Assembly: GCA_963809475.1 (NCBI GenBank)
Contig: CAWEJS010000001.1
Location: forward strand, 410,125-474,124
Direction of reading: 5' to 3'
Length of the DNA stretch: 64,000 nt
Source: an uncultured Acidobacteriota bacterium
GTDB lineage: Bacteria > Acidobacteriota > Vicinamibacteria > Vicinamibacterales > JAKQTR01
In this document: piece after piece, positions 31,832 through 53,993 of the stretch
Numbering within the stretch: the stretch's first letter is position 1
Layout of the letters: every line of letters begins with the position of its first letter
Translations under genes and position numbers: made by a program
The notes under the pieces: generated by a model
Databases searched by the model: none
Told to the model about the DNA's origin: nothing
The model's input: only the letters and a program-made list of their open reading frames with translations

Positions 31832-32368
<537 letters not shown>

Positions 32369-32477: not shown

Positions 32478-32618
32478 ACCCAACTCTGCAAAGCCCGGTA
32501 GGAAGACGCCCAAGCCGTCGAGGATGTCCGCGCAGCGCCTGCGCGGCTTGAGCCGCGCCACGCTGGAACAGGACACCGCCTTCGCGGTCGACCTGACGTG
32601 GAAAGGACTGATGCAGCG

Positions 32619-35392: not shown

Positions 35393-35459
35393 TCCCATCG
35401 AACAGACGCTTGCGGCTCGCTCGGGCGGCCAGCCTCACCCCTGGCGCATCGCGATCTCG

Positions 35460-36974
35460 GTGGTGTTCGGCACGTTCATGGTCGTGCTCGACACGACGGT
35501 GGTGAACGTCTCGCTGCCGCACATCGCGGGCAGCCTGTCGGCCAGCATCGAGGAATCGACGTGGGCGCTCACCATGTACCTGGCCGCCAACGCGATCATC
35601 CTCCCGATCACGGGATGGCTGGCGAACCAGTTCGGCCGGCGCCGCCTGCTGCTGCTCTCGGTGGCCGGCTTCACGGTCGCCTCGCTCATGTGCGGGCTGT
35701 CGTTCTCCCTGCCGTTCCTGGTGGTCTGGCGCGTCATCCAGGGCGCGACGGGCGGTGTGATGCAGCCGCTGTCGCAGGCGATCATGCTCGAAGCCTTCGA
35801 GCCGCGCGAGCGCGGGAAGGCGATGGCGCTGTTCGGGATCGTGGTCGTCGTGGCGCCAATCATGGGGCCGGTCGTCGGCGGGTGGCTGACCGACAGCTAC
35901 TCGTGGCGGTGGGTGTTCTACATCAACCTCCCGATCGGCGTCCTCGCCTTCATGATGCTGCGCCGGAACATCTTCGATCCGCCATATATCCGGCGGGGGA
36001 CGGCGGGCATCGACTACTGGGGGATCGGGCTGCTGGCCGTCGGCATCGCCGCGCTGCAGATCGGCCTCGACCAGGGTCAGCAGAAGGACTGGTTCGAGTC
36101 GTCGCTGATCACGACGCTGCTCGCGCTAGCCGCGATCGCGCTCGTCGCGTTCCTCGTGCACGCCCTGCGCTCGAAGGCGCCGGTCGTGAATCTCAGGCTG
36201 TTCCGCGACCGGACCTACGCCGCCGGCGTCGCGCTGATTACCGCGCAGAGCGTCGGGCTCTACGGCAGCCTCGTCCTGATGCCGGTGCTGCTCCAGACCC
36301 TCATGGGCTACCCCGCACTCGAGGCCGGCTACGCGATGGCGCCCCGCGGGCTCGGTTCGCTCGTCGTCACCCCGATCGCGGGCCTGCTGGTGAACCGGGT
36401 GGATCCCAGGCGCCTGCTCGCCGTGGGATTCGTCGCGAGCGCGTTCTCGCTGTACTGGATGTCGTGGCTGAATCTCCAGGCCGGCTTCTGGGACGTGTTC
36501 TGGCCCCAGTTCCTCCAGGGCGCGGGCATGGGGCTGTTGTTCGTCCCGCTGACGACGGTCGCCATGGATCGGATCAGCCTGAAGGACATGGGGCAGGCCA
36601 CCAGCATCTTCAATCTGCTCCGGAACATCGGAGGAGCGGTGGGCATCGCGATGGTGCAGACCGTGCTGGCGCGGGATCGCCAGGAGCACTTCAACGTGCT
36701 CGGCGCGCACGTCCAGCCGTACGGCTTCGCGACACAGACGATGTTCGCGAACCTGAAGGCGACATTCATCGCGCGCGGATCGGACGTGACCACCGCGACC
36801 AGCCAGGCCTACGCTGCCCTCTTCGGCATAGTTCAGAAACAGGCGGCCATGGTCGCGTTCCTCGACACGTTCAGGCTCCTGGCGGTCGTGTTCCTGCTGA
36901 TGCTGCCGCTCCTGTTCCTCATGAAGAAGCCGCGGCACCAAGACGAGCCGACGATCGTGGTCGCTGAGTCGTGA
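35460..36974 (+). CDS. MFS DHA2-family (EmrB/QacA) efflux transporter
   Basis: FMVVLDTTVVNVSLPHIAG and LANQFGRRRLLL motifs, 14-TM-like length. In-frame similarity (HPWRIAIS) extends upstream of the GTG at 35460 without a canonical start, so the 5' end is uncertain. Confidence 0.8.
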   Translation: MVFGTFMVVLDTTVVNVSLPHIAGSLSASIEESTWALTMYLAANAIILPITGWLANQFGRRRLLLLSVAGFTVASLMCGLSFSLPFLVVWRVIQGATGGVMQPLSQAIMLEAFEPRERGKAMALFGIVVVVAPIMGPVVGGWLTDSYSWRWVFYINLPIGVLAFMMLRRNIFDPPYIRRGTAGIDYWGIGLLAVGIAALQIGLDQGQQKDWFESSLITTLLALAAIALVAFLVHALRSKAPVVNLRLFRDRTYAAGVALITAQSVGLYGSLVLMPVLLQTLMGYPALEAGYAMAPRGLGSLVVTPIAGLLVNRVDPRRLLAVGFVASAFSLYWMSWLNLQAGFWDVFWPQFLQGAGMGLLFVPLTTVAMDRISLKDMGQATSIFNLLRNIGGAVGIAMVQTVLARDRQEHFNVLGAHVQPYGFATQTMFANLKATFIARGSDVTTATSQAYAALFGIVQKQAAMVAFLDTFRLLAVVFLLMLPLLFLMKKPRHQDEPTIVVAES

Positions 36975-36990: not shown

Positions 36991-38085
36991 TCACCTGAAC
37001 AGCGCGGCTTCGACGGCCAGGCCAGGGCCGAACGCGAGCGCCAGGCACGGTCTCGGGGCGCCGCGCCGCCGGAGGCGTTCGAGGATGAACAGGATCGTTG
37101 GCGACGACATGTTGCCGAACTCCCCGAGCACCTCCTGCGACACCGCATAGTCCTCGCGGGTGATGCCCGTGGTCTGCGCAACGGACTCGAGGATACGCGG
37201 CCCCCCGGGGTGCACGGCCCAGGATGCGATGCGGTCCACGGACAGGCCGTTGTGCGCGAGCCAGCTGTCGAGCCACGGCCGCAGTTCGCGTTCGATCACG
37301 CCCGGCACTCGGGCCGACAACGACATCTCGAACCCGTGATTGCCGATCCGCCACGTCATCAGCTCGGCAGAATCCGTGAGCAGGGACGACCCGCTCCGGG
37401 CGAGCTCCCAGGCATCGCCTGACGCGGGCTTTCGTCCGCCCCCGACCAGTGCGGCCGCGCCGTCCGCGAAGATCGCGTTCGACACGATCCAGTCGCCGTG
37501 CCAGCCGTACTGGTAGTGGAGGCTGCAGAGTTCGACCGCGCAGACGAGCACACACGCGTCCGGATCGCTGCCGGCGTAGGCGCCCGCCACCCGCAGCCCG
37601 TTCAGCGCGCCGTGGCACCCCATGAATCCCACGTGCGTGCGGGCCACGGTCACCGGCAGCCCGAGATCCCCCACGAGCCGCATGTCGAAATTCGGCGCGG
37701 CAAATCCGGTACAGGACACCGTGACCAGGTGGGTCACGGTGAGCGGCGACACGCCGGCGTCCTCCAGCGCGGCTCTAGCCGCTCGCACGCCGAGGCCCGG
37801 CGCGTGGGTCTCGTACTGCGCCATGCGCTCGGCCGTGGATGGTCCGCAATCACCGGCGTCGCGCACGGGCGGGAAGAACGAATGACGGACGGTGCCGGGC
37901 TCGTCGCCCTCGTCGAGCACGACGCTGTGGCGCTTCTTCACCCGCGTCAGGCGGTAGATGGCCTTCAGCTGACGCTGCTGCTCGTCGGACGAGCCGCCAT
38001 ACTGCCGCGCGACCTCGACGGCCTGCTCCTGCGAGATCGCGTGCGGCGGCGAGGCGACGCCGATGCCGTACACATAGAGGGCCAT
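36991..38085 (-). CDS. type III polyketide synthase (chalcone synthase superfamily)
   Basis: The start is set at ATG 38085 (MALYVYGIG). Catalytic Cys (VSCTGFAAP), His (WAVHPGGPRIL) and Asn (FGNMSSPTILF). Confidence 0.9.
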   Translation of the reverse strand: MALYVYGIGVASPPHAISQEQAVEVARQYGGSSDEQQRQLKAIYRLTRVKKRHSVVLDEGDEPGTVRHSFFPPVRDAGDCGPSTAERMAQYETHAPGLGVRAARAALEDAGVSPLTVTHLVTVSCTGFAAPNFDMRLVGDLGLPVTVARTHVGFMGCHGALNGLRVAGAYAGSDPDACVLVCAVELCSLHYQYGWHGDWIVSNAIFADGAAALVGGGRKPASGDAWELARSGSSLLTDSAELMTWRIGNHGFEMSLSARVPGVIERELRPWLDSWLAHNGLSVDRIASWAVHPGGPRILESVAQTTGITREDYAVSQEVLGEFGNMSSPTILFILERLRRRGAPRPCLALAFGPGLAVEAALFR

Positions 38086-39287
38086 TACACGGTCCTTCCG
38101 ATCGCGCCGGGATGGCGCGGCGCCAGATGAGCCAGAACGGGCCTGGCGAGGCCCGGGTGTCGCCGAAGCAACAGGACGAGGGGCGTGACGATCGCGGGCA
38201 TCCTGAGCACACGCGCCACCACGCGGCACCACCGCTGCTCGCGGCGGATGCCGCCGGCGTACGCGCCGATCCACTCGCGCTCGAGCCGGCGCTCGTGGGA
38301 CTGCGTGGCCCGTATCACGAACGGCACCACGGCTTCCGCCCCGGCAAACGCCCACGCCATCCCCTCGCCGGTGAACGGCTCGACGTACCCGGCTGCATCA
38401 CCGATGACGAAGATCCCGCGCGCGGCCGGGCGGGACAGACCACGGGTCAGCGGGATCGTGCCCATCCATTCGACCTCATCCAGACCGGATCCGGTGCTCT
38501 GTCCGGCTTCCGCGAGGAGGACCCCGATCGCACGGGAAGCGGTGGCGTGGGCCTTGAGAAAGCCCGGATCGATGGCCGCCGCAATGTTCACGCGTCCGCC
38601 CTCGACCTCCACGGCACCGACGTAACCGTGCCGGCCGATGGCCATCGTGATCGACCCGGGGACGATCTCGACCGCGCCGCGTTCGGCCTCGCCACCCACG
38701 CCCACGCGCGCCGTCGGGGACACGCGGCCGTGAAAGGACGTGCACTCCCGCAGGGAACTGCGGGAAAGCCCGTCGGCCACGAGGACCGCCTTGCCTTCAG
38801 CGGACGCGCCCGGCCCGTGGGGCTGCTGCAGCAAGACGCGCCGCCAGCCCTCCCGCCACGGCTGGTTGCTCTCAGCCACGACCACTGCCGTCGTCCCAGG
38901 CAGGAATGCGCAACCGGCCTCAACCGCCGCTGACACCAGCTCCGCATCGAAGGCGCGCCGCGACACGGCCAACCCCGGCGCGATCTCGATCGCCACGCTC
39001 CGGCCGCGCTGGCGCAGATGAAGCACGTGGACGGGCGCGGCACCAAGGCCTCGAACCCGCTCGACGAGGCCGGCACGGGCGAGGGCCGCGATCGCCTGCG
39101 TGTTCAGGCATCCGCCGCATACCTTCGGACGCGGAAAGCGCCTGCGCTCGACCAGGAGGACCCGGAGCCGTGCGCGCGCCAGGAGACACGCGGACAAGGC
39201 GCCGGCGGGGCCGGCGCCGATGACAATCGCATCCCACGGCTGGAGTGCCGCGCGCGCGGCATCGATGGTCGGGGCGATGTCCGTCAT
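38085..39287 (-). CDS. FAD-dependent oxidoreductase/hydroxylase (geranylgeranyl-reductase-like fold)
   Basis: DAIVIGAGPAG dinucleotide motif, CGGCL, and a C-terminal GDAAGYVEPFTGEG. 1-nt overlap (TAATG) with the PKS start. Confidence 0.8.
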   Translation of the reverse strand: MTDIAPTIDAARAALQPWDAIVIGAGPAGALSACLLARARLRVLLVERRRFPRPKVCGGCLNTQAIAALARAGLVERVRGLGAAPVHVLHLRQRGRSVAIEIAPGLAVSRRAFDAELVSAAVEAGCAFLPGTTAVVVAESNQPWREGWRRVLLQQPHGPGASAEGKAVLVADGLSRSSLRECTSFHGRVSPTARVGVGGEAERGAVEIVPGSITMAIGRHGYVGAVEVEGGRVNIAAAIDPGFLKAHATASRAIGVLLAEAGQSTGSGLDEVEWMGTIPLTRGLSRPAARGIFVIGDAAGYVEPFTGEGMAWAFAGAEAVVPFVIRATQSHERRLEREWIGAYAGGIRREQRWCRVVARVLRMPAIVTPLVLLLRRHPGLARPVLAHLAPRHPGAIGRTV

Positions 39288-39311
39288 ACACGGGACTCCA
39301 TGCCCGATCCG

Positions 39312-40004
39312 TCACACCGGTCTTCGCCAGACCAGCAGCCATCGCTGCGGCCAGACCTCGTCGACTTCAGCGCCCGACAGGCACGCGCGCCGGGCCAGGG
39401 CGCGCGCCTCGCGGCTTGTGAGCGCGGCCGCAACCGAGCGCGCCCCGTCCACCCGGAACACGCGCGAACGGGACAGCAGGCGGCAGCCAACCCACGTGTA
39501 GAGACGGCCCAAAGGCGTCCGGCGCAGATCGGACACGACGACCGCGCGCGCCGCCGCGTCCCGCATGCGGCCCAGGAGGGCCACCGCGTCCGCGTCGGTC
39601 ACGTGGTGCAGGAACAGCGTGGAGACGACGACGTCCACGCCGGCGGGCATCGGGTCGCGCAACGCGTCGGCCCGCTCGAACCACACCCCTTTGACGCGTG
39701 ACCGATCGGCCAGGGTGCTCGCGTAGTCAACGGCGACGCGGCTCGTGTCCCAGCCGGTCCACTCGACATCGACCCCCTCGGCGGCGGCGCGCCGGGCCAG
39801 AGCCACGAGGACGTGGCCTCCGCCGCAGGCGACATCGAGGACGCGCAGTCGGCGTCCCGCGGCGTCGCGCGCCGCTTCCCGTATGACTGGCCAGATGGCG
39901 GCGGCCGTGCGGCTGACCGAATTGGCCAGACCCAGCGCGTCGAGCGCGCGGACGTGCTGCCGGACATCCAGGCCGGGCTGGTCCATCATCTCCGGCACGA
40001 TCAC
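39312..40004 (-). CDS. class I SAM-dependent methyltransferase
   Basis: Motif I (VLDVACGGGH) and the post-I acidic residue, 230 aa. Confidence 0.8.
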   Translation of the reverse strand: MIVPEMMDQPGLDVRQHVRALDALGLANSVSRTAAAIWPVIREAARDAAGRRLRVLDVACGGGHVLVALARRAAAEGVDVEWTGWDTSRVAVDYASTLADRSRVKGVWFERADALRDPMPAGVDVVVSTLFLHHVTDADAVALLGRMRDAAARAVVVSDLRRTPLGRLYTWVGCRLLSRSRVFRVDGARSVAAALTSREARALARRACLSGAEVDEVWPQRWLLVWRRPV

Positions 40005-40045
40005 GCGGGGGCTGCGGATCAGGAGCGTTCCTCCTCAGCTACGGA

Positions 40046-41443
40046 CTACTCGCTCAAGCCCGCGAGACGGTACTTGGCGAGGTAATGGCTCAAGGCGCGC
40101 TGGCTGATCCCCATGAGTTCGGCGGCGTCCTTCTTGACTCCGCCGGCCGCGTCGAGGGCCCGCCGGATGGTCTCGCGCTCGACCCACTCGAGGTTCTGAT
40201 GCAGGCGCATCGACGGCACTCCGGGCACGGCGGCCGGCGTGGCGCGCAGCCCCGAGATCGCGTCAGCCCCGAGAACCTCGTCGTGCGACAGGACGACCGC
40301 GCGTTCAATGGTGTTCTCGAGCTCGCGCGCGTTGCCCGGCCAGTCATACCGCTCGAGGATCGCCATCGCCGACTCGTGCAGGCGCTGCGCGGGCCTCCCG
40401 ATGCGATGCGCGTGCTTGCGGAGAAAGTGCACCGCAAGGACGGCGATATCCTCCCGGCGTTCACGAAGCGGGGGGATCCGGATCGGGATGACGTTGAGGC
40501 GGTAGAAGAGGTCCTCCTGGAAGCTCCCGTCGGCGACCATCTGCACGAGATCGCGGTTCGTCGCGGCGATGACGCGGACGTCGACCTTCTCGGCCCGTTC
40601 CGATCCCAGCGGCTCGAACTCGCGCTCCTGCAGCACGCGAAGGAGCTTCGCCTGGAGCGGCTGGCCCAGCATCGCGATCTCGTCGAGGAGGATCGACCCG
40701 CCGTGGGCGAGCGCGAACTTGCCCTTCTTGTTGGCCGTGGCCCCGGTGAAGGCGCCGCGCACGTGCCCGAACAGCTCCGACTCGAGCAGCGTCTCCGGGA
40801 TGGCCGCGCAGTTCACCTTGATGAGCGGCATCTCGCGCTGGGCGCTGCGATCGTGGATGGCCCGCGCGACGAGCTCCTTGCCCGTGCCGGTCTCGCCGGT
40901 GATGAGGACGGTGCTCTTCGTTTCCGCCACGCGCTCGAGCGTCCGGATGACGTCCTGGATGGCGCGGCTGCCGCCGACGATGCCGTAGTGGCCGAACTCC
41001 TCGTCGCGCTCGCTCAGCAGGTAGCGGTGCTGGTTGCGCAGGCGCTGAAGGTCGATCGCGCGGCGCACCACGACCAGCAATTCGTCGATCTCGAACGGCT
41101 TCTGGAGGTAGTCGAGCGCCCCGAGTTTCATGGCCTCGATGGCGCTGTCGACCGTGGCGTGCGCGGTCATCAGCACGATCTGGGGCCGCTCGCCGGACGG
41201 CGTATGCTGGACGAGGTCGCGGATGAGATCCAGCCCGGTGAGGTCGGGCATGATGTTGTCGACGACCGCGACGTCGAAGACCTGCTCGGTGAGGAGGCGC
41301 TGCGCCGCCCGGCCGCTGGACGTCTCCACGACGTCGTGGCCCTCTTCCCGCAGCGCGCGGCCCAGTGCCCGCAGGATGCGTTCCTCGTCGTCCGCAACCA
41401 GGATGCTCCCGGTGGCCAACCTGTCGTCCGTTCGCGATGTCAT
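40046..41443 (-). CDS. sigma54-dependent response regulator (NtrC family)
   Basis: The start is set at ATG 41443 (MTSRTDD...). REC domain (ILVADDE...D...K), AAA+ Walker A (GETGTGKE), the sigma54-contact GAFTGA motif, and a C-terminal Fis-type HTH. The track ORF of 859 aa is an artefactual upstream extension. Confidence 0.9.
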   Translation of the reverse strand: MTSRTDDRLATGSILVADDEERILRALGRALREEGHDVVETSSGRAAQRLLTEQVFDVAVVDNIMPDLTGLDLIRDLVQHTPSGERPQIVLMTAHATVDSAIEAMKLGALDYLQKPFEIDELLVVVRRAIDLQRLRNQHRYLLSERDEEFGHYGIVGGSRAIQDVIRTLERVAETKSTVLITGETGTGKELVARAIHDRSAQREMPLIKVNCAAIPETLLESELFGHVRGAFTGATANKKGKFALAHGGSILLDEIAMLGQPLQAKLLRVLQEREFEPLGSERAEKVDVRVIAATNRDLVQMVADGSFQEDLFYRLNVIPIRIPPLRERREDIAVLAVHFLRKHAHRIGRPAQRLHESAMAILERYDWPGNARELENTIERAVVLSHDEVLGADAISGLRATPAAVPGVPSMRLHQNLEWVERETIRRALDAAGGVKKDAAELMGISQRALSHYLAKYRLAGLSE

Positions 41444-43263
41444 GAGGTCCCCTCGCCCGCTCTGCCGGGCGGCGGTGCGGCCGGCAGCTCGATGCGCACG
41501 TTCGTGCCGGAGGGCGTCCCGCTGGCGATGGCGATGACACCACCGAGGCTCTCGATGATGTTCCGCGAGATCGCCAGGCCGAGTCCCGTCCCGCCCCGGC
41601 GCGTGGTGAAGAACGGCTCGAACAGCCGCGCCGCGACGGCAGGATCGACGCCGGGGCCGTCGTCGTGAACGACGACGACGGCCCCGCCCTGCTCGCGCGC
41701 GACGGCGCGGATCTCGATTCGCGCGTGCCCGGGTTCGGCGCCGTCCGCCGCGCTCCCCGGGACGGCGCGAACCGCCTGGGCGGCATTCTGCAGGATGTTG
41801 ACCAGGACGGTGCGCACGCGCTCGGGGTCGGTGCGAATCGCAGGAAGCCCGGGCGCAGGGACGACGCCGATGGCCACGCCTCCGTCTGCGGCCTGGACGG
41901 CCTGCGCCGCCTCCTGACAGAGGGCGTTGACGTCGGCGTCCCGCCACGTGAACGTGATGGGCTTCGCATAATCGAGCACTTCGCTGACGATCCGGTTGAG
42001 GCGGATCACCTCCTGGTCGATGTCCTGGATCGCCTCCGCGCGGACGTCCGGCCCGGCGTCGGCCTGGCGCAGCGTCCGCGTCGCCGACTTGATGATCATC
42101 AGCGGGTTGCGAATCTCGTGGGCGATCACGCTCGACAGGCGGCCCAGCGAGGACAGGCGCTCGCGCTGGGCGGCTTCCTTCTCGAAGCCCGCGATGGAAT
42201 CGGTGAGCGTGTTGAACGTCGACGCCAGCAGACGCGCGTCCTCGTCGTCCCAGGACCCCGGCTGCACCGGGATCTTGCGGGTGAGGTCGCCGGTCGCAGC
42301 CACGTCGCGCATGACGTCGGTGATGGAGGCCAGGGGCCGCGTGACCGTTCTTGCGACGGCATAACTCAGCACCGTCGCGAGGAGGATCGTGGCGAGGGCC
42401 GCGGCGCCAATCACGGTCTGGATGTGGCCCACGAACCGCAGCTGTTCGCTCCTCGAGCGGACGACCATGACGAAGGGCGAGCCCTCGACCGCAACGGGAT
42501 CGCGCCCTCCCGCCCGGGCACCCGGAGCCCTCATGAATGGTGCCGACAGGAGCACGTAGTCGTCCTCTCCCGCCGACACCCGGGCCATGCGCCCCGGCAC
42601 GCCCGCAGCGTCGAAGGCCGCCCACGTGGGCCGCTGGAGCGTGGACGCCCGGGTTCGGCCGTCAAGGCCGAAGGACACGTCGCTGCCCGTCAACTGCTTG
42701 AAGTCGGCCGCGACCGCCCCGTCGAGCAGGAACCCGACGCTGAGGGTGCCGGCGATGCCCGCAGGATCGCCCCCGATCGTGATCGGCACGCTCAGCACCT
42801 GGAGGAGGCCGTCCGGGTGGGCCCGGAAGGACGAGGCCGTCGTGCCGCGCAACGCGGCTCGAATTGACGGTAGCGTGGACGAGACCCCCGGGTCCAGGAC
42901 GAGGGGGCCGGCCATCGCCAGCACGCGGGCGTCACGATCGGTGACCACCACCAGGCTCGATCGAGCGAGCATCTGCTGGTAATCGGCCGCCAGCGGCTGG
43001 ACCGTGGGCGGATCGCCGGTCGCGACGGCGGCCTTGAGCTTCGGCAGGTCGGCGATCAACCGGGCAAGCATCGAGATGGTCTCGACCAGCGCTTCCCCCT
43101 GGCGCCCGACGACGGCGCCCGACTCCACGAGCCCGCGCTGGAGGTCCGACTCGGCCTGCGCGGTGACGCGCGAGCTCACGAAGAACGCCGTGAACCCCGT
43201 GGCGAGCACGACGAGCAGCGCCGCCGCGAGGAAGATCCGGTTCGTGAGCGATGCCAGCAGCAT
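41440..43263 (-). CDS. sensor histidine kinase (TM - periplasmic domain - TM - HAMP - HisKA - HATPase)
   Basis: H-box (VIAHEIRNPL), N box, and G boxes (DDGPGV, GGTGLGLAIS). 4-nt overlap with the regulator gene. Start at 43263 (MLLASLTNRIF) by alignment with the paralog; 43293 is also possible. Confidence 0.85.
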   Translation of the reverse strand: MLLASLTNRIFLAAALLVVLATGFTAFFVSSRVTAQAESDLQRGLVESGAVVGRQGEALVETISMLARLIADLPKLKAAVATGDPPTVQPLAADYQQMLARSSLVVVTDRDARVLAMAGPLVLDPGVSSTLPSIRAALRGTTASSFRAHPDGLLQVLSVPITIGGDPAGIAGTLSVGFLLDGAVAADFKQLTGSDVSFGLDGRTRASTLQRPTWAAFDAAGVPGRMARVSAGEDDYVLLSAPFMRAPGARAGGRDPVAVEGSPFVMVVRSRSEQLRFVGHIQTVIGAAALATILLATVLSYAVARTVTRPLASITDVMRDVAATGDLTRKIPVQPGSWDDEDARLLASTFNTLTDSIAGFEKEAAQRERLSSLGRLSSVIAHEIRNPLMIIKSATRTLRQADAGPDVRAEAIQDIDQEVIRLNRIVSEVLDYAKPITFTWRDADVNALCQEAAQAVQAADGGVAIGVVPAPGLPAIRTDPERVRTVLVNILQNAAQAVRAVPGSAADGAEPGHARIEIRAVAREQGGAVVVVHDDGPGVDPAVAARLFEPFFTTRRGGTGLGLAISRNIIESLGGVIAIASGTPSGTNVRIELPAAPPPGRAGEGTS

Positions 43264-43400
43264 GGTCGCGGTTCTCACCGGATGCCACACCATCTGTCGA
43301 CTACGCCGTCGTCCGGCACGGCCACGATGCGCGTCTCGCGGACCGCGCCTTCATGCCACACGGCGAGGGTGTACAGACCCCGGCGGGACGCCGGCCCGGG
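42191..43400 (-). repeat. segmental duplication, copy B (relic of the upstream gene's 3' end plus the sensor/HAMP module of the kinase)
   Basis: Collinear nucleotide and protein similarity to 44520..45735 with an offset of about 2330 bp. Similarity stops right after the HAMP segment (...STFNTLTDSIA). Confidence 0.8.
43275..43400 (-). pseudogene. relic copy of the last ~41 codons of the cupredoxin-like gene (no start codon)
   Basis: Translates to PGPASRRGLYTLAVWHEGAVRETRIVAVPDDGVVDRWCGIR*, compared with PPGSYTLAVWYEGEVRERRTVVVPDDGVVESAFVIR* at the end of 45607..46296. It begins 2 nt after the PP2C gene stop. Confidence 0.7.
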
Positions 43401-43402
43401 AC

Positions 43403-45592
43403 TCACGCGGGTGAGCCACGCTTGCACACCACCACGGTGATGTCGTCCTGTTGTGGGGCGGCGCCGACGAAGTCGTGCACGGTTCGACAGAGGCGCTGCA
43501 CGAGTTGCTCGGCGGGTTCGTGGCGGTGCGCTCGGATCACGCGCAACGCGTTCTCTGCTCCGAAGACGCCGCCGGTGCTGTCCTCAGCCTCGGAGATCCC
43601 GTCGGTGAACAGGACCACGAGGTCTCCCGGCTCGAGCGCGAGGTCTTCGTAGCACCCGTACTCCTGGCTCGGGAACATCCCCAGCGGTACGCCGGTGCTG
43701 CTCAGGGCGGTCTTCATCCCGCCCTCCCGATCAAGGTGGTAGCCGGACACGTGGCCCGCATTCACACAGCTGAAGCGGTTCGAGCGGGCATCGAGCCTGA
43801 CCAACACCATCGCCACATAGTGGTTGGATTCCAGGTCGGCAAAGAGCGCGTCGTTGATGATCGCGAAGGTCTGCCCCGGGCTGGAACACGATTTCGAGAG
43901 GAACCGCAGGTACGAACGCGTCGCCGCCATGATCAGCGCCGGCCCGAGCCCGTGCCCGCACACGTCGCCGATCACCAGGTCCAGGCCGTGATCGGCCAGC
44001 GGCACGTAGTCGAAATAGTCTCCGCAGGTGGCCTGGGCCGGGAACACCGCACCAGCGATGTCATACCCCTCCACATGCGGCGCGGCTGCGGGGTAGAGCT
44101 TCTGCTGGATCTGAGACGCGTACTGCATCTCGATGTCCTGCGCCTGGCGTTTGAACCGGTCCGTCATGTCCTTGACGACCGCCACGAAGTGGATGATATG
44201 TCCGTCCGACGCTTTCACCGGCGTGATCGTCTGCTCGGCGTGGTAGAGTTCGCCGCTCTTCTTGCGATTGAGGGTGTTGGATCGGAAGGTCGACCCGGCC
44301 AGGATGGTGCTCCACAGTTCCGCGTAATACTGCGGACCGGCCTGTCCCGATTTCAGGATGCGCGGGGTCTGGCCGATTGCCTCTTCGCGGGAGAAGCCCG
44401 TGGTCGTCTCGAAGGCGGGGTTGACGTACTCGATCACGCCCTCGCGATTCGTGATGAAGACCGTGTCGGCGGTCTGCTCCACGGCACTCGAGAGGCGCAA
44501 CCGCTCCCCCTCGGTCCGGGCGATCGAGTCGGTCAGGGTGTTGAACGTCGACGCCAGGAGACGCGCGTCCTCGTCCTGCCAGGACCGCGAGCGCAACGGG
44601 ATCTTGCGCGTCAAGTCCCCGGTCGCGGCGACCTCGCGCATCACGCTGGTGATGGCAGCGAGCGGACTGGTCACGGTCCGCGCGACGGCGTAGCTCAACA
44701 CCGTGGCGAGCAGCATCGTGATGATCACGGTCACGGCAATGCCGGTCTGAATCGGACCGAGGAACCGCAGTTGCTCGGTCCGTGACCGCACGACGACGAC
44801 AAAGGGCGATCCGCCCACGACCGCTGGCGCGTGGCTCCTTGCCCCGGCGACCGACATCGGCACGAGCGGTCCCGACAACAACACGTACTCATCCGGGCCG
44901 GACGTCACCCGCGACATCCGGTCGGGCCGCCGTGCGTTGTCCAGGAGCGGCCAGAGCGGTTCCGGGAGCGTCGCGGCCACGATCCGTCCATCGAGGCCAA
45001 ACGCGATCTCGCTCCCTGTCAGTTGCTTGAGGTCGGACGCCGCCGCATCGTCGAGCAGGAACCCGACGCTGAGTGTGCCTGCCAGGCTCGCGGGTTCCCC
45101 ACCCACCGTGATCGGCACAGACAGCACCTCGAGGATGCCCGCGGGGTGGCGGCGAAACGACGAGGCCGGAGAGCCTGCCAGCGCGGCCCGCACGGACGGC
45201 AGGGCCTCGCCCAGCGCCGGATCCAGCGCGGCCGGGCCGGCTGATGCCAGCACCCGACCGTCCCGGCCGGTCACCACCACGAGGCTCGAGCCGGCGAGCA
45301 TTTGCTGATAGTCGGCGACAAGGGGTTGAACGGTGGGAGGGTCGCCGGTGGCCACGGCTGCCTTGAGCTTCGGCAGATCGGCCATCAGGCGCGCCAACAC
45401 CGCGAAGGTCTCGACGAGCGCCGCACCCTGGCGTCCAACGACAGCGCCGGATTCCAGCAGCCCGCGCTGCAGCTCCGCCTCGGCTTCGGCGGTCACCCGC
45501 GAATTGACGAACACCGCCGTGACGCCAACCGCCAGCACCACCAGCAGCGCGGCTGCGAGGAAGATCCGGTTCGTGAGCGAGGCCAGCCGCAT
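43403..45592 (-). CDS. sensor protein: TM - periplasmic domain - TM - HAMP - PAS - PP2C/SpoIIE phosphatase
   Basis: The N-terminal ~330 aa are paralogous to the adjacent kinase. PAS region (VFITNREGVIEYVNPAFETTTGFSREEAIG). PP2C motifs (GDYFDY, GDVCGHG, TDGISEA, DDITVV). Confidence 0.85.
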   Translation of the reverse strand: MRLASLTNRIFLAAALLVVLAVGVTAVFVNSRVTAEAEAELQRGLLESGAVVGRQGAALVETFAVLARLMADLPKLKAAVATGDPPTVQPLVADYQQMLAGSSLVVVTGRDGRVLASAGPAALDPALGEALPSVRAALAGSPASSFRRHPAGILEVLSVPITVGGEPASLAGTLSVGFLLDDAAASDLKQLTGSEIAFGLDGRIVAATLPEPLWPLLDNARRPDRMSRVTSGPDEYVLLSGPLVPMSVAGARSHAPAVVGGSPFVVVVRSRTEQLRFLGPIQTGIAVTVIITMLLATVLSYAVARTVTSPLAAITSVMREVAATGDLTRKIPLRSRSWQDEDARLLASTFNTLTDSIARTEGERLRLSSAVEQTADTVFITNREGVIEYVNPAFETTTGFSREEAIGQTPRILKSGQAGPQYYAELWSTILAGSTFRSNTLNRKKSGELYHAEQTITPVKASDGHIIHFVAVVKDMTDRFKRQAQDIEMQYASQIQQKLYPAAAPHVEGYDIAGAVFPAQATCGDYFDYVPLADHGLDLVIGDVCGHGLGPALIMAATRSYLRFLSKSCSSPGQTFAIINDALFADLESNHYVAMVLVRLDARSNRFSCVNAGHVSGYHLDREGGMKTALSSTGVPLGMFPSQEYGCYEDLALEPGDLVVLFTDGISEAEDSTGGVFGAENALRVIRAHRHEPAEQLVQRLCRTVHDFVGAAPQQDDITVVVCKRGSPA

Positions 45593-45735
45593 GGTCACGG
45601 ATCCCCTCACCGAATCACAAACGCGCTCTCGACGACGCCGTCGTCCGGTACGACCACCGTGCGCCTCTCGCGGACCTCGCCTTCATACCAGACAGCGAGG
45701 GTGTACGAACCCGGCGGGATGCCGGTGAACGTGTA
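44520..45735 (-). repeat. segmental duplication, copy A (3' end of the cupredoxin-like gene plus the sensor/HAMP module of the PP2C protein)
   Basis: See copy B. By eye, roughly 70 percent of amino acids are identical across the sensor module. Confidence 0.8.
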
Positions 45736-46296
45736 GCGTCCGGACACATCGGTCACCGCGAAGAACCGGTGGGCGAACACGAGGATGTAGGCGCTCATGT
45801 GCGAATGGATGTCGCAGAACACCTGCACGACGCCGGGGCGGTCGAACCGCACGGACTTCGACTTGCCGCGCGAGTAGCGGCCCAGGTCGAAGGCCTTGGT
45901 CTTCGACAGCGAGAACACGTTGTGGAACGTGATATCGCGGTTCGGGAAGTCCACCGTCGTGCCGACCGCGATCGCCAGCACGTGCGGCACGAACGTCTGG
46001 TCCCGCTGATTCATCGTGGCGCGCGCGGACTCGTCGAGTTCGAACGCGCCGCGAGGCGCGGTGTCCAGGTAGACGACGGCCGGCCGGAGCTCGGCCGGCC
46101 GGCGAGGCGGCGCGCCCAGCGCGGCGGACGCCGGCCTGGCTTCGGTGGCAAGTTGGCTGCGGCGTATGTCGACGACGCCGCGGATCGTGCCGTTGGCGCC
46201 CGACGCGACGACTCCCTGGCGGGCCGCCGCCGCGAGGGCGAGCATGACGATCGCGAGGATGGCGACGGCACGCGGACTGACGCTGTGGCTTTTCAT
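45607..46296 (-). CDS. periplasmic cupredoxin-like protein flanked by CarboxypepD_reg-like segments
   Basis: ATG 46296 with a signal peptide. TVDFPNRDITFHNVFS...VFCDIHSHMSAYI gives a type-1-copper-like H...C-x2-H-x2-M pattern. The C-terminus (GRYTFTGIPPGSYTLAVW) resembles a carboxypeptidase-regulatory fold. Confidence 0.6.
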   Translation of the reverse strand: MKSHSVSPRAVAILAIVMLALAAAARQGVVASGANGTIRGVVDIRRSQLATEARPASAALGAPPRRPAELRPAVVYLDTAPRGAFELDESARATMNQRDQTFVPHVLAIAVGTTVDFPNRDITFHNVFSLSKTKAFDLGRYSRGKSKSVRFDRPGVVQVFCDIHSHMSAYILVFAHRFFAVTDVSGRYTFTGIPPGSYTLAVWYEGEVRERRTVVVPDDGVVESAFVIR

Positions 46297-46301
46297 CGGC
46301 G

Positions 46302-47528
46302 TCAGAACCAGAGGAGCGCCTGGACGGCCGCCAGGCGACTTCGGCGGACGCCGCCGCCGTCGCGCCAGTTGTCCATGACGGAGGCCTTCACGAGCAGGCC
46401 CCGCCTGATTGTGTATCCCACGCCAAGCTCGACTCGGGACACATTCGCGTCCCACGTGCGGAAGCCGGCAGAGCCGCGAAGGGCCGAGAAGGTCATGCGA
46501 TCACCCCGGGCCGCGACGTAGAAACCCGGGCGCAGGCGTACCTTGGTTTCGAGATACCAGGCCCGGGATCCGAGCGGGTCGATGATGCGCGGCTCGTCCA
46601 GGGCCGGCAGCGCCCACGAACTCGCCACGAACTCGCCGCGAAGCAGCCAGCGGCCCCACGACGTCTCGGCATCGATCCCGACGGCTTGCTGATTGTAGGG
46701 CCGGTCCGGAATGCCGGGACGCGCTGCGCGGACCACGTCACTGACGAACGCGCCCCGAGCGGCGGACACGCCGATGGCGAACGCGGGAACGGGCCGCCAG
46801 CCCAGGTGGCCGGCCACCTGGCCGCCTCCGTTGTCGTTCTTCACCAGCGGGGACGACAGCGATCCCACGGTCAGCGCCACCGCGCCTTCCAGCGTCGGCC
46901 GCCCCACGCGAACCTCGATTCCTGTGTCCCACCGGCCAGCCGCAATCATCGGCACGCCGGCTCCCGCGTACGCATCGCCCACCGGGTAGGAAGCCCGCCA
47001 TCCCCGGCCGCGCATCCGCAGCAGGTCGTCGGCCGTCGCCGGCACGGCGTCCGGGCGCAGCGACGTCAGGTACTGGTACCCGAGCGGATCGCCGATGAGC
47101 GGATTGTCTTGCGGATAGCTTCGCCGCGCGTATGTTCCGAACACGGGCGGGATCCGCCCGGCCTGGATGTCAACGAGGCCGCTGTCAAACGGTGTCAGGC
47201 GCATGTACCACGCATACGGCCTGACGCCGGTTCCTGTTTCGGCCCGGATCTCCGTCAGGAAGGTCAATCGCCGCGACACGCGGAGCTCGACGGTCAGGCC
47301 GGCGCGGATCCGTCGAAGCGCACTGGTCTCATAGTCCGTGTACGTGAACCAGCCCGGGTCATCGCTGCCATAGGTCGCCGACGCGTCGCCTGCCAGAAGG
47401 AGGCGGCCGCCGGCAAGGGCTACCGGCTCGCTCGGCCAATGCTGAGCGTCAGCCAGGGGTGGCTGGAGTGGCCCGACGCAGGCAACGAACGTTGCAACGG
47501 CGATCCGCCGCGAGATACTCGCACACAT
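46302..47528 (-). CDS. putative outer-membrane beta-barrel protein
   Basis: The start is set at ATG 47528 with a signal-like peptide (MCASISRRIAVATFVACVG...ADAQ). Alternating beta-strand pattern, Gly/aromatic-rich, C-terminal ...ALLWF. The rest of the 729-aa track ORF is discarded. Confidence 0.5.
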   Translation of the reverse strand: MCASISRRIAVATFVACVGPLQPPLADAQHWPSEPVALAGGRLLLAGDASATYGSDDPGWFTYTDYETSALRRIRAGLTVELRVSRRLTFLTEIRAETGTGVRPYAWYMRLTPFDSGLVDIQAGRIPPVFGTYARRSYPQDNPLIGDPLGYQYLTSLRPDAVPATADDLLRMRGRGWRASYPVGDAYAGAGVPMIAAGRWDTGIEVRVGRPTLEGAVALTVGSLSSPLVKNDNGGGQVAGHLGWRPVPAFAIGVSAARGAFVSDVVRAARPGIPDRPYNQQAVGIDAETSWGRWLLRGEFVASSWALPALDEPRIIDPLGSRAWYLETKVRLRPGFYVAARGDRMTFSALRGSAGFRTWDANVSRVELGVGYTIRRGLLVKASVMDNWRDGGGVRRSRLAAVQALLWF

Positions 47529-47605
47529 TCTTGAGTGCCGACTCCATTCTATGCACATTCGCTGCCCGGCCGGAGAGCGGTTCGGGCACGGTGCCCGCCC
47601 GCCGG

Positions 47606-48562
47606 CTAGCGCAACCGATACGTCGCGAGCGCGCGGAGGTTGAAAAGGCCGTCGTTCCGCGCCGGCGCACCCGGGCCTCGCCTGACCGAGAGCGGGGAAT
47701 AGAAGGCATCCACGCTCAGAGACAGCCGGGTCGTCAGCGGGTAGCTGATCCCGCCGCTGGCGGACGCTGTCACGCCGTGCGAGGTGTACCTGGTGTGATC
47801 GATCATGTCGAAGGTCAGCGCGTCGACCTGGAACGCCACGTTCATATAGGTGAGCCCGACCGCGGCATGCGGTGAGAGCCTGTGCGGGACGCCCGGCCGA
47901 TACGCGATGCTGGCTTCCCCGCCCGCATAGCGCAAGACCGCTGTGTCTGATGACGCCGCCTGGCAGCCGTCGATGTTGCCGGGGGAGCCCGGCTCGAACG
48001 CCAGGATCGTCTCCGGGCACGTGTAAGACCCCTTCACCCGGCCGACCTGCCCGTAGCCGCGCAGGCCCACAGCCCACGAGGTTGTTTCGTAGACTGGCCG
48101 CTCGATTGCGATCGCCAGCAGCGCCGGCGTGATCCCGAACATCCGGACGGGAGGCACCACCGCGACGATGAGCGACAGGCGGGCCGGCAGCGCGATGGTG
48201 ACACGGGGCCTCAGGAACATCGGCGCCTTGTTGAGATCCTGTGCCTCCGTTCCGTCGTATCCGACGAGCTGCTGCGCGTCGCTGAGCGGAGGCAGCCATC
48301 CGACTTCCAGTCCGAGTGACACGGCGCCCGGCTTCCGGGTGCGGGGCGTCTCGAGGCCGCTGAGCAGAGAGGCCGACGCGAAGTGCTTGAGCGCCCACGA
48401 TTCCGGCCGGTCGAAGGAAAGGTGGTCGACGCTGTTCATGACCATCTGGGCGGCTGAGGGCGACGGGATGCCGACGAGACACGCGGCGCAAGCGGCCAGG
48501 CAGACCACCGTCCTCGAGACCCCGACACGACGTCGCACGTTACCGAGCAGTTCCGGTGTCAC
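47606..48562 (-). CDS. putative outer-membrane beta-barrel protein
   Basis: Signal peptide (VVCLAACAACLVGIPSPSAAQ), alternating-hydrophobic strands, and an aromatic-containing terminal strand (LRALATYRLR). Confidence 0.45.
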   Translation of the reverse strand: MTPELLGNVRRRVGVSRTVVCLAACAACLVGIPSPSAAQMVMNSVDHLSFDRPESWALKHFASASLLSGLETPRTRKPGAVSLGLEVGWLPPLSDAQQLVGYDGTEAQDLNKAPMFLRPRVTIALPARLSLIVAVVPPVRMFGITPALLAIAIERPVYETTSWAVGLRGYGQVGRVKGSYTCPETILAFEPGSPGNIDGCQAASSDTAVLRYAGGEASIAYRPGVPHRLSPHAAVGLTYMNVAFQVDALTFDMIDHTRYTSHGVTASASGGISYPLTTRLSLSVDAFYSPLSVRRGPGAPARNDGLFNLRALATYRLR

Positions 48563-49196
48563 TTGAAGTCCTCGCTCTCAGCACGAACTGAATGTCGATC
48601 TCGTCTCTGACACGCACCGTGCCACCTCCCGCGGTCACGGGCACCATGCCGAACTCGGACTGCTTCAGCGAGCATGACCCGCGAGCCGTGAGGCGGCCCC
48701 CAGCGTCGATGGTTGCGGTGGCGCGGACGGCCAACGGGCGCGTCGTGCCGTGCAATGTCAGATCGCCCTCGATCAGGAGGTCCGCGGCGGCGGCGGTCCG
48801 CGCCGACACCGAGACCCGCCGCGACCGGTAGCCAATCGTCGGGAATCGTTCGACGTCCAGCACCCGGCCGCCCAGCATCACCCGCTGAACCTCGCCCACG
48901 TCCGCGGGCGGTTCGTTCCTGCCGGTCACGCGCAGGGCGGCCGCTGCGAATTCGAGCGAGACACTGGCGCGCGACAGGTCCACCGGATCGAACACCACCT
49001 GGCCATGGACGTCCGCCGCGGCCACCTCGTGCGCGTGTCCGGCAAAGCCGAACAAACCGGCTTTCCCGACCTGAATCAGGACCTGACTGTCCGCAGCATC
49101 GACGGTCATCACCGTCGGGCTGCTGCCGGCCGACGCCGCGGCCTGGGCGAACAGACACGCCGCGATCGGGAAGCGCCACCGTGAACCGTGCAACAT
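48540..49196 (-). CDS. YceI-family periplasmic lipid/polyisoprenoid-binding protein
   Basis: Signal peptide, then the YceI pattern (S.V.F...K....F.G.......G.V.FD), LDVERFPTI and GDLTLHGTTRP. Confidence 0.75.
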   Translation of the reverse strand: MLHGSRWRFPIAACLFAQAAASAGSSPTVMTVDAADSQVLIQVGKAGLFGFAGHAHEVAAADVHGQVVFDPVDLSRASVSLEFAAAALRVTGRNEPPADVGEVQRVMLGGRVLDVERFPTIGYRSRRVSVSARTAAAADLLIEGDLTLHGTTRPLAVRATATIDAGGRLTARGSCSLKQSEFGMVPVTAGGGTVRVRDEIDIQFVLRARTSSDTGTAR

Positions 49197-49246
49197 GACT
49201 CACCTCGGTTGTCGATCCTGCCACTGGACACGCTGTCCGACACGAC

Positions 49247-49262
49247 TGCAAGGCGCGTGCCC
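49247..49262 (-). promoter_or_regulatory. sigma54 (-24/-12) promoter GGGCACG-N4-TTGCA upstream of yceI
   Basis: The minus strand reads CCAGGGGCACGCGCCTTGCAGTCG. The GG-N10-GC spacing is exact, and 15 of 16 positions match TGGCACG-N4-TTGCA. It lies about 50 nt upstream of the yceI ATG, with a GAGGTGA RBS in between. Confidence 0.6.
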
Positions 49263-49365
49263 CTGGAGGGCGCCGCATGATCCCGCGGTTCTTGGCCTGT
49301 CCGCGGTCGAGATCCGCTGTGTATCCGGGCCGCCGGCGTGATGCCGGCTTACGGGCGCCGTAGAT

Positions 49366-49384
49366 GCTTACGTCGCAGGTAAGC
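49366..49384. promoter_or_regulatory. palindrome GCTTAC-N7-GTAAGC (candidate enhancer-binding-protein site), with an extra GCTTAC at 49347
   Basis: Inverted repeat about 105-135 bp upstream of the sigma54 promoter, a typical UAS distance. Confidence 0.3.
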
Positions 49385-49505
49385 GCTCACCGGTGCGATC
49401 GCCCGAATATCGTGATGTTGGCGCTCCGGACGTCGGTATCGAACTTGCACTGGCGTACGTCGGGTATGGAAAGGAGGGGCCGAACCGGTCCCAGGAGGAT
49501 AGATC

Positions 49506-49928
49506 ATGAACTCGCGATTGACGCTCACGATCGGCGGCGTACTTCTCATTGCGGCGACGGCGGCAGGCTGTGGCGGCGGCGGCATGGGCAGCAGCTACGG
49601 CAGTCCGGCGGCGCCGACCCCGACGAGCCCCGCGCCGACTCAAGGGCCCGTGACGGCGGCGGACGTCACAATCACCATCGTCGGCATGAACGGCAGCAAC
49701 TCGTACTCGCCGAACCCGGTGACGGTGAAGGTCGGCCAGACGGTGGCGTGGCGCAACGCCGACTCGTTGATCCACACCGCGACTGCAGACGCGGGGGGCT
49801 TCGACACGGGCAATATCGCCGCCGGTGCGACGAGCTCCGCGATTGCCATGAATACCGCAGGGAGCTTTCCCTACCACTGTGCGATCCATGGCTTCACCAT
49901 GACCGGGACCTTGACGGTCACGCAGTAG
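49506..49928 (+). CDS. plastocyanin/azurin-family cupredoxin lipoprotein
   Basis: Lipobox (LIAATAAGC). Type-1 copper ligands: H (SLIHTAT) and YHCAIHGFTMTG (C-x2-H-x4-M). Confidence 0.8.
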   Translation: MNSRLTLTIGGVLLIAATAAGCGGGGMGSSYGSPAAPTPTSPAPTQGPVTAADVTITIVGMNGSNSYSPNPVTVKVGQTVAWRNADSLIHTATADAGGFDTGNIAAGATSSAIAMNTAGSFPYHCAIHGFTMTGTLTVTQ

Positions 49929-51094: not shown

Positions 51095-51165
51095 GAGCAG
51101 ACTCCTCTTCGGTCGGATCCGACCACACCGCATCCGGAGCGGGATCCGGGCCCGTGCCGGCGCGG

Positions 51166-53772: not shown

Positions 53773-53993
53773 GATCGACTTCTCCTGCGGGTTGGCTTGC
53801 GAGGACATTACATGGCAGGATTCTGCTCTCCACTCCGGCCGCAAGGCAAGACTTGTCACTTGCGCAGCGGCGGGGGCACCGCGATGCGACCAGGCATGTC
53901 GTCTTCGACGCCACGCGGATGGGCGAGCTTACCGCCGAGCCCGTTCGGCGGTACGATTGGCGGGTCCGTGAACGAGGAGCAGATGTGAGGCAC

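Follow-up and report, generated by a model that had tools for sequence, protein, structure and literature searches.

Sigma-54-dependent two-component systems that control envelope genes, and gene cassettes built around a type III polyketide synthase (PKS), are each of a known kind; here we describe a combination of the two. It occurs in a 64-kb stretch of DNA with a G+C content of ~69% (hereafter the window) from an uncultured member of the Acidobacteriota, which carries ten genes on the minus strand between 36991 and 49196. Read in the direction of transcription, these encode a YceI-family lipocalin and a small outer membrane (OM) beta-barrel; a porin-like OM barrel, a periplasmic cupredoxin-like protein (G4), a sensor with a PP2C-type phosphatase output, a sensor histidine kinase and an NtrC-type sigma-54 activator; and finally a methyltransferase, an FAD-dependent oxidoreductase as well as a type III PKS.

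The regulatory genes recall ZraP-ZraS-ZraR, AtoSC and NtrBC in the pairing of a membrane kinase with an activator of receiver, AAA+ (GAFTGA) and HTH_8 domains, in an inverted-repeat site, in -24/-12 promoters at divergent targets and in a periplasmic accessory protein. However, the window system is not a member of the ZraSR or AtoSC equivalogs: its accessory proteins are the porin-like barrel and G4, a cupredoxin-CarboxypepD_reg protein, and not ZraP, and both its site (TTAC-N7-GTAA) and its set of targets differ. Scores against the NCBIfam equivalog models fall far below the cut-offs (447 versus 714 for AtoC, 369 versus 760 for ZraR and 187 versus 646 for AtoS). A parallel in logic, for which no sequence relation is claimed, is provided by PahS-PahP-PahK-PahR of Cycloclasticus, where the genes for an OM and a periplasmic protein accompany those of a two-component system to which both proteins signal; in contrast to the system considered here, this one senses aromatic hydrocarbons and controls catabolism (PMC10570129). 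By analogy, the porin-like barrel and G4 of the window may relay a signal to their sensors.

The PKS cassette resembles hidABC, the cyanobacterial hierridin genes, and a planctomycete operon in its order (methyltransferase, FAD oxidoreductase, PKS last) and tight spacing (PMC10896814), and srsABC of Streptomyces griseus in its three enzyme types. In Corynebacterium, expression of the planctomycete type III PKSs yields alkylresorcinols (PMC10896814). For hidABC neither a regulator nor a partner in the envelope has been described, whereas the window cassette follows the NtrC gene and lies beside a regulon of YceI, barrel and cupredoxin genes. The lipocalin belongs to the same family of periplasmic or secreted proteins as BcnA and LcoA. 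Known YceI proteins carry octaprenylphenol or ubiquinone-8, both seen in crystallised members, or other hydrophobic ligands, and pair with cytochrome b561 as a redox partner (PMC9113575). The window locus has no cytochrome b561 gene; here the partner genes of yceI encode an OM barrel and a blue-copper lipoprotein under probable sigma-54 control, with a type III PKS as a recurrent neighbour.

Comparison with related loci indicates that the stretch is a composite of several units and not one operon. The explanation that we favour, at a probability of about 0.6, holds that units were joined in this lineage which either are part of an envelope signalling system conserved in the Vicinamibacterales, so far uncharacterised, or were taken up by it, with a link to lipid synthesis included. 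Proteins of the outer envelope for lipid binding, copper and pores are probably switched on by the sensor system by way of a sigma-54 promoter. The Vicinamibacterales, abundant in soil, have hardly been studied by experimental genetics, and the purpose of the alkylresorcinols and alkylquinones made by bacterial type III PKSs and the natural cargo of the YceI lipocalins are both old questions. The system offers a regulon that can be recognised by a sharp cis-signature, in which TTAC-N7-GTAA repeats accompany a -24/-12 promoter, and a core module present in hundreds of genomes, while the recurrence of non-orthologous PKS cassettes beside YceI, with a common promoter in one lineage, merges the two questions into one. 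The window also presents two sensor modules with the same input domain and different outputs (kinase and phosphatase), apparently fused in one operon.

Genes were called from codon-position G+C and inspection of start sites, domain labels were taken from Pfam and NCBIfam, and folds were assigned with AlphaFold2 and Foldseek (Table 1). Related loci, designated by L-numbers, were collected in three sets: 80 species-level loci from a genome search with G4 as the anchor (core-anchored), 80 metagenome loci anchored on the PKS, and a third set anchored on the small barrel. Relatives of the window proteins come almost exclusively from metagenome-assembled genomes (MAGs) of Vicinamibacterales. An earlier note on this DNA had described the minus-strand genes as an eleven-gene train. 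The genes are real and their labels match, but they number ten, and that note's own list also names ten. Pfam and NCBIfam bear out its labels for the YceI protein, the sensor-PAS-PP2C protein, the histidine kinase, the NtrC-type activator, the methyltransferase, the FAD oxidoreductase and the type III PKS; its two predicted OM barrels match no Pfam family and have a barrel fold by AlphaFold2 and Foldseek. The two largest gaps that it had given are reproduced at 77 nt (47529-47605) and 139 nt (43264-43402), all others being <=41 nt or overlaps.

Table 1. Genes and candidate control elements of the locus (window coordinates; aa, amino acids)
Feature	Coordinates	Strand	Evidence and remarks
Divergent blue-copper (Cupredoxin_1) lipoprotein gene	49506..49928	+	Pfam Cupredoxin_1 E=4.4e-8, Copper-bind 4.2e-5
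Weak sigma-54-like -24/-12 site, CGGTATCGAACTTGCA	49434..49449	+	Faces cupredoxin gene
Two inverted repeats TTAC-N7-GTAA, 19 bp apart	49349..49382	.	Putative binding sites of NtrC-type activator
Sigma-54 -24/-12 promoter of yceI, GGGCACGCGCCTTGCA	49247..49262	-	~50 nt before yceI start codon; conserved before yceI in seven loci
yceI, YceI-family periplasmic lipocalin, 218 aa	48540..49196	-	Pfam YceI E=4.6e-18, 66.5 bits vs cut-off 23.7
Small OM beta-barrel (G2, 'bar1'), predicted, 310-318 aa	47606..48562	-	AlphaFold2 pLDDT 75; Foldseek
-10 box TAGAAT, conserved; candidate sigma-70-type promoter of sensor operon	47546..47551	-	17 nt before porin-like start codon
Porin-like OM beta-barrel (G3, 'bar2'), predicted, 408 aa	46302..47528	-	AlphaFold2 pLDDT 87.1, pTM 0.83; Foldseek
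Periplasmic cupredoxin-like + CarboxypepD_reg protein (G4), 229 aa	45607..46296	-	Pfam
Sensor (two transmembrane segments, periplasmic domain)-HAMP-PAS-PP2C/SpoIIE phosphatase, 729 aa	43403..45592	-	SpoIIE 161 bits vs cut-off 25, PAS, HAMP
Relic: 3' end of second G4 gene	43275..43402	-	Aligns with G4 3' end ~45607-45715 (last ~110 nt)
Sensor histidine kinase, 607 aa	41440..43263	-	Pfam HisKA, HATPase_c, HAMP
NtrC-type sigma-54 activator	40046..41443	-	Response_reg 92 bits, Sigma54_activat 235 bits, HTH_8 32 bits; GAFTGA in translation
SAM methyltransferase	39312..40022	-	Pfam, NCBIfam PRK06202; likely start CTG 40022 behind Shine-Dalgarno GGAGGA
FAD-dependent oxidoreductase	38085..39287	-	Pfam FAD_binding_3; NCBIfam geranylgeranyl-reductase family
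Type III PKS, 364 aa	36991..38085	-	Pfam Chal_sti_synt_N and _C, 78.5 and 73 bits

The regulon is marked by two kinds of cis-element. The motif GGCAC-N5-TTGCW occurs once in the 64 kb, as the promoter element of yceI, which is almost identical to a site (CGGCACGCGCCTTGCC) found after the NtrC gene in locus L001; the loose sigma-54 consensus, allowing two mismatches, is no more frequent in the window than expected by chance. About 105 nt upstream of the -24 element lie the inverted repeats, one exact (49368-49382) and a second copy with one mismatch (49349-49363). Exact TTAC-N7-GTAA is present once in the window, against 0.01 expected. In the relatives the distribution of this repeat is striking: 55 of its 62 occurrences (in 1.25 Mb) fall between the NtrC gene and a -24/-12 site, often as two copies 19 bp apart, and three of the remaining seven precede yceI (L004, L008 and L047). 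In 38/67 core-anchored loci the orthologous NtrC gene has a -24/-12 site behind it. Repeat and -24/-12 site are both present in 35 of 37 non-redundant loci, from other Vicinamibacterales species, in which an accessory operon comes straight after NtrC; among loci without such an operon, 18/24 have neither. The same kind of pair accompanies yceI wherever that gene was found, and is conserved before it in L004, L008, L047, L170, L171, L174 and L175, and in L171 the yceI pair that carries them has no linkage to any core. The near-consensus element that had been noted in front of yceI is thereby confirmed, as it recurs with the repeats beside orthologous NtrC genes in dozens of species. By these sequence comparisons the sigma-54 promoter of yceI is real, the adjacent NtrC-type activator very probably serves it, and the co-localisation points to TTAC-N7-GTAA as the site that NtrC binds.

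The first target of this promoter is the pair of yceI and the small barrel gene. Foldseek matched the model of the small barrel to Pla, OmpT, OmpA and FadL with E values down to 6e-8, at TM scores of just 0.25-0.46, and we regard its assignment as an OM beta-barrel with moderate confidence. Its gene was always found downstream of yceI, and its family has 621 members; at the thresholds used it showed no cross-match to DUF5777, another barrel family encoded in related loci, no profile-profile comparison having been made. In other genomes the yceI-barrel pair lies after NtrC, convergent with NtrC, or unlinked. The second target is probably the divergent gene, which was absent from the earlier note and lies outside the stretch that it covered. 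Its translation has a lipobox and the blue-copper motifs H...C-x2-H-x3-M, and a divergent cupredoxin gene also adjoins yceI in L004, L008, L170 and L171. The weak site that faces it in the window (CGGTATCGAACTTGCA) has better equivalents on the opposite strand in the same four loci, including a perfect TGGCAC-N5-TTGCT in L004 (TGGCACCGGACTTGCT, 0 mismatches). The repeats therefore appear to sit between two divergent sigma-54 promoters. Separately, we noted that in L174, L175 and L047 the divergent partner of yceI is not a cupredoxin but a TPR-like protein of ~279 aa with a sigma-54 site of its own.

The sensor operon has a different kind of start. The motif TA[TGC]AAT occurs within -100..+10 of the porin-like start codon in 51/82 loci, against 0.0075 expected per region, and is represented in the window by TAGAAT. 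A built-in sigma-70 scan found no promoter in any gap between the window genes; this box came to light only by comparing loci. The earlier note had called the yceI element the only strong promoter signal, a view that does not hold given this conserved -10 box and the sigma-54-like site facing the cupredoxin gene. At <=3 mismatches, neither a second repeat nor a second sigma-54 promoter was found for the window sensor operon or PKS cassette, save a weak GG-N10-GC at the -10 box (47552-47567, minus strand). Loci of the TAGAAT clade (L001, L002, L007, L009, L010 and L012) have this weak element overlapping their -10 box, as CGGCATGGAATGTGCT in L001, and its spacing is one base longer in L086-L088; it might be a second promoter, of sigma-54 type. 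Sigma-54-like sites (TGGCATCCGGCTTGCC, TGGCCTCAGTCTTGCT and others) are also seen upstream of a cupredoxin-porin-G4-kinase-NtrC operon in L172-L175 and L047, and in these lineages the sensor operon may be autoregulated. A start of the porin-like gene at ATG 47558 was considered and is ruled out by an in-frame stop in L087, the true start being ATG 47528.

Several proteins of this operon have informative matches. The porin-like barrel, which ends in the residues LLWF, resembles OmpC, OmpK36, OmpF and OprP in Foldseek comparisons (E 5e-16 to 1e-13); like the small barrel, it is predicted to be a closed antiparallel barrel with a signal peptide. G4, which has >7500 relatives, scores 20.8 bits against Pfam Copper-bind, slightly below the cut-off of 21.2; its candidate ligands H125, C161, H164 and M167 are invariant in 12 sequences, and the copper nitrite reductase cupredoxin domain is matched by a G4 profile (E=2.2e-4) with the type-1 copper ligands aligned. 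The kinase and the PP2C protein are 72% identical over their first 374 residues (BLASTP), which cover the sensor and HAMP regions. The kinase gene overlaps the activator gene by 4 nt, and the activator itself is 69-84% identical to the core NtrC of the 80 species.

Two module types are represented in these genes. The barrel, G4 and PP2C protein of the window are 79-89% identical to those of a barrel-G4-PP2C type of module, and orthologues of the PP2C sensor (82-89% identity) occur in stand-alone modules of this type in L086-L089. In turn, the window kinase and NtrC are 75-84% identical to those of the barrel-G4-kinase-NtrC type. The gap of about 140 nt between the two sensor genes had been read in the earlier note as filled by a duplication relic, and it does align with the 3' end of the cupredoxin-like gene; in the sibling strain L170 this relic is down to ~10 nt. 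Since the window holds both types, with the remains of a second G4 gene at the joint, comparison of the sequences identifies the sensor operon as a fusion of a barrel-G4-PP2C and a barrel-G4-kinase-NtrC module.

Stand-alone modules suggest what the phosphatase output might act on. In L087-L089 (12363-15682 in L087), barrel-G4-PP2C is followed by genes for a protein with sigma-70 region 2 and for a Ser/Thr kinase of 859 aa, which are probably the partners of the PP2C sensor there. In L105 (6206-8337), genes for an extracytoplasmic function (ECF) sigma factor and a kinase are divergent to a cupredoxin-cytochrome-DUF5777 operon, and a hid-type PKS cassette lies 3.3 kb away. Together these loci suggest a second control route for the same target genes, in which kinase and phosphatase act on a sigma factor. 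In published outline, the arrangements resemble EcfP/PknT and EcfK/PknS, in which a Ser/Thr kinase controls an ECF sigma factor; by analogy, the sensor PP2C could oppose such a kinase. The window differs in holding no sigma/kinase pair.

As to the signal, we considered whether the regulon serves copper or periplasmic-redox homeostasis, as a sigma-54 analogue of CopRS, CusRS and ZraSR in which G4 reports copper to the sensors, the targets handle copper or electrons, and YceI and the PKS are peripheral. This proposal is about the signal, and the regulon could be built as described above and still fit it. G4 keeps all four type-1 copper ligands, one target in the window is a blue-copper lipoprotein, and ZraS and ZraR are among the closest NCBIfam models of the kinase and activator. 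Moreover, content after NtrC varies among the core-anchored loci, and the commonest arrangement is an operon for a Cupredoxin_1 protein with a CuA-like C-x3-C-x3-H-x2-M motif, a CxxCH protein, a DUF5777 barrel and an H-x-H-rich lipoprotein; in some loci a cupredoxin accompanies the yceI-barrel pair at this position, and in others nothing recognisable is found. However, these loci contain no copper exporter, multicopper oxidase or CusF/CopC-type chaperone, the copper binding is itself a prediction, and the recurrent PKS cassettes and YceI would be left unexplained. We regard this as a possible but doubtful account of the system as a whole, while copper or envelope redox state is our best guess for the stimulus.

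The composite that we favour includes the PKS cassette. Its three genes are tightly spaced (a 24-nt gap, then a 1-nt overlap), and the cassette begins 23-41 nt after NtrC, the distance from the NtrC stop being 23 nt with the CTG start. The Shine-Dalgarno sequence, the CTG and the N-terminal LLIRSPR of the methyltransferase are conserved in L092 and L098, and no ATG, GTG or TTG is available (39990-40045). The Cys, His and Asn triad of the PKS is intact in the translation (VSCTGF, VHPGG and GNMSS), and its closest solved structures are 4B0N, PKS18 and PKS11 (E ~1e-45), with Steely1 also matched. By homology, the product would be a modified alkylresorcinol or alkylquinone. Because no promoter, repeat or terminator of its own is visible before the cassette, it is probably read through from the sensor operon. 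An efflux operon on the plus strand (32598-36974), encoding OEP/TolC-like, HlyD-type adaptor and EmrB-type MFS proteins, heads towards the PKS gene and ends 16 nt away from it; the MFS gene is at the same place in the sibling L170. This operon could export the PKS product. Elsewhere, inverted copies of GGGTCAGAGTCGACA lie ~150 nt before the methyltransferase gene in L093 and L141, and a ~39-nt tandem repeat precedes the hid-type cassette of L095 (7790-7900); these may be small mobile or regulatory repeats.

The case for a link between PKS cassettes and the YceI, barrel and sensor system rests on recurrence. Of the 95 loci anchored on the core or the barrel, nine bear YceI, and 5/9 of these have a type III PKS, against 0/86 of the others (hypergeometric ~2e-6, with no correction for shared ancestry). 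Three kinds of cassette, not orthologous to one another, are involved: methyltransferase-FAD-PKS in the window, (URO-D)-PKS-methyltransferase-(FAD) in L174, L175 and L047, and PKS-ICMT-ACP-acyl-AMP ligase in L172. Within the second kind, L174 has PKS and methyltransferase, L175 has URO-D, PKS, methyltransferase and FAD enzyme, and L047 has URO-D and PKS. Since the window PKS is just 30% identical to that of L174, different cassettes were recruited. L172 is the most direct case. A junction form of the same half-sites, CGTAACCGTTTACG, occurs there in exactly two copies in 20.9 kb. One precedes the PKS cassette and the other yceI, and in both cases GGCACG-N4-xTGCATTGTCCA follows ~75 nt downstream; the start of a divergent sigma-factor gene in L172 was called too far upstream, so that both signals lie in true intergenic DNA. 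The known YceI ligands octaprenylphenol and ubiquinone-8 are long-tailed amphiphilic phenols or quinones, and in this respect resemble alkylresorcinols and alkylquinones. Taken together, the recurrence suggests that type III PKS cassettes are linked with the YceI/barrel/sensor system. In the literature searched we found no paper linking YceI with a type III PKS or alkylresorcinol, and none on DUF5777 or on Vicinamibacter with sigma-54. One apparent parallel was rejected: the URO-D-like gene beside the window cupredoxin is not the counterpart of the URO-D gene before the PKS in L175 and L047, at 21% identity.

A number of observations weigh against the composite with its lipid link. The loci were sampled through homology searches and not at random. 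The five PKS-bearing YceI loci amount to ~3 independent events, L174, L175 and L047 sharing one arrangement and L170 being a sibling of the window, and in four of the nine loci with YceI a nearby PKS is lacking. The window cassette has neither repeat nor sigma-54 site, L174 and L175 have no sigma-54 site before the PKS, and none of the 80 PKS-anchored loci contains the core, so that a hid-type cassette was never seen beside it. Within the window, the PP2C sensor has no partner in the form of a sigma factor or Ser/Thr kinase, and there is no rpoN gene, the window being the sole part of the genome examined. Finally, co-transcription, NtrC binding and the nature of the PKS product are all points that we infer from sequence.

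Some of these observations would be expected if the cassette were simply an unrelated neighbour, a mobile and promoter-less hidABC-type unit that landed after NtrC beside a regulon unconnected with phenolic lipids. Hid-type cassettes do occur in many contexts. In most of the 80 PKS-anchored loci (39-80% PKS identity) methyltransferase-oxidoreductase-PKS is a free-standing three-gene unit, which in several cases follows a phosphoglucomutase gene; a search of these loci for YceI, barrel or core genes near the cassette returned only weak YceI matches in 3/80 (L115, L116 and L128, two of them near-duplicates), no more than chance. Similarly, none of the 80 core-anchored species has this cassette. 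In contrast, chance insertion does not account well for the 5/9 versus 0/86 distribution, with its three non-orthologous cassette types in differing positions, or for the common repeat and sigma-54 promoter of PKS and yceI in L172. There is also a precedent, in that a type III PKS and a lipid/isoprenoid-binding protein share one operon of a planctomycete-related strain (PMC10896814). On balance we consider an unrelated neighbour unlikely.

The conservation of the neighbourhood bears on how the units of the composite are joined. The core of porin-like barrel, G4, kinase and NtrC is collinear in all 80 species-level genomes wherever the contig allows it to be seen, and none of these has a PP2C gene in the position that it occupies in the window. 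The complete ten-gene order is confined to L170, the sibling strain, at 92-97% nucleotide identity. Part of what the earlier note had named as refuting a single train is thus seen, the order being absent from the 80 core-anchored and the 80 PKS-anchored loci. In the gaps between the window genes there is no terminator (built-in scan), structured RNA, Rfam family or riboswitch, and the gap between the yceI-barrel pair and the porin-like gene has no stable structure (z = -0.1). Of the two features that would divide a single transcript, terminators are therefore lacking in the gaps, but an internal promoter is indicated by the conserved -10 box.

A single autoregulated ten- or eleven-gene operon, in which one periplasmic signal acting through the yceI promoter of the earlier note would switch on envelope proteins, sensors and PKS alike, draws on the shared strand, the short gaps without terminator-like sites, the positive feedback that read-through would give and the sigma-54-like site before the cupredoxin-porin-G4-kinase-NtrC operon in L172-L175, but is very improbable, given that the neighbourhood is limited to the sibling, that the -10 box lies directly before the porin-like gene, that in 80 other species the core stands alone behind an upstream region of its own, which lacks a sigma-54 site (4 weak matches in 81), that the yceI-barrel pair is found elsewhere in other arrangements, and that, if kinase and activator could be made only once activated, a second promoter would be required in any case. 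What stands of the original proposal is the idea that sigma-54 control, envelope proteins and phenolic-lipid synthesis go together, which has comparative support for a regulon and not for a single train.

For the composite, we propose the following mechanism. The sensor operon would be expressed from its own -10 promoter, and a periplasmic stimulus would act on the paralogous sensor domains, perhaps by way of the porin-like barrel and the copper protein. The kinase would phosphorylate NtrC, which would bind the two TTAC-N7-GTAA repeats and activate the two divergent sigma-54 promoters, one for yceI and the small OM barrel and the other for the blue-copper lipoprotein. The PKS cassette would supply a phenolic lipid or quinone as the cargo of YceI, and the small barrel or redox partners within the regulon might act on this lipid. 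Oxidation of the lipid by the cupredoxin-like protein, and its insertion or export by the barrels, were guesses of the earlier note. A more ambitious version, which we put forward as a speculation and think distinctly unlikely in its entirety, is that the sigma-54 regulon builds an extracytoplasmic lipid-quinone shuttle, with an alkylresorcinol or alkylquinone from the PKS cassette carried across the periplasm by YceI, received at the OM by a dedicated small barrel and exchanging electrons with blue-copper or CuA-type cupredoxins and a c-type cytochrome, all under the dual-output sensor assisted by porin and cupredoxin. If true, polyketide quinones and YceI proteins would thereby acquire a definite role in the envelope.

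The surroundings of the locus contain genes of several other kinds. Flanking it on the minus strand are genes for a 458-aa URO-D-family protein, extended at length at its N-terminus (50033-51409), and a GH116 glycosidase (51166-53928), and on the other side are plus-strand genes for a TadA-like deaminase (31832-32368) and a 1002-aa open reading frame without a Pfam match (28155-31163). Among the relatives, L016, L025, L034, L063 and L079 carry a high-G+C locus of Vicinamibacterales type in records titled as Bifidobacterium or Bifidobacteriaceae MAGs, which look mislabelled or contaminated.

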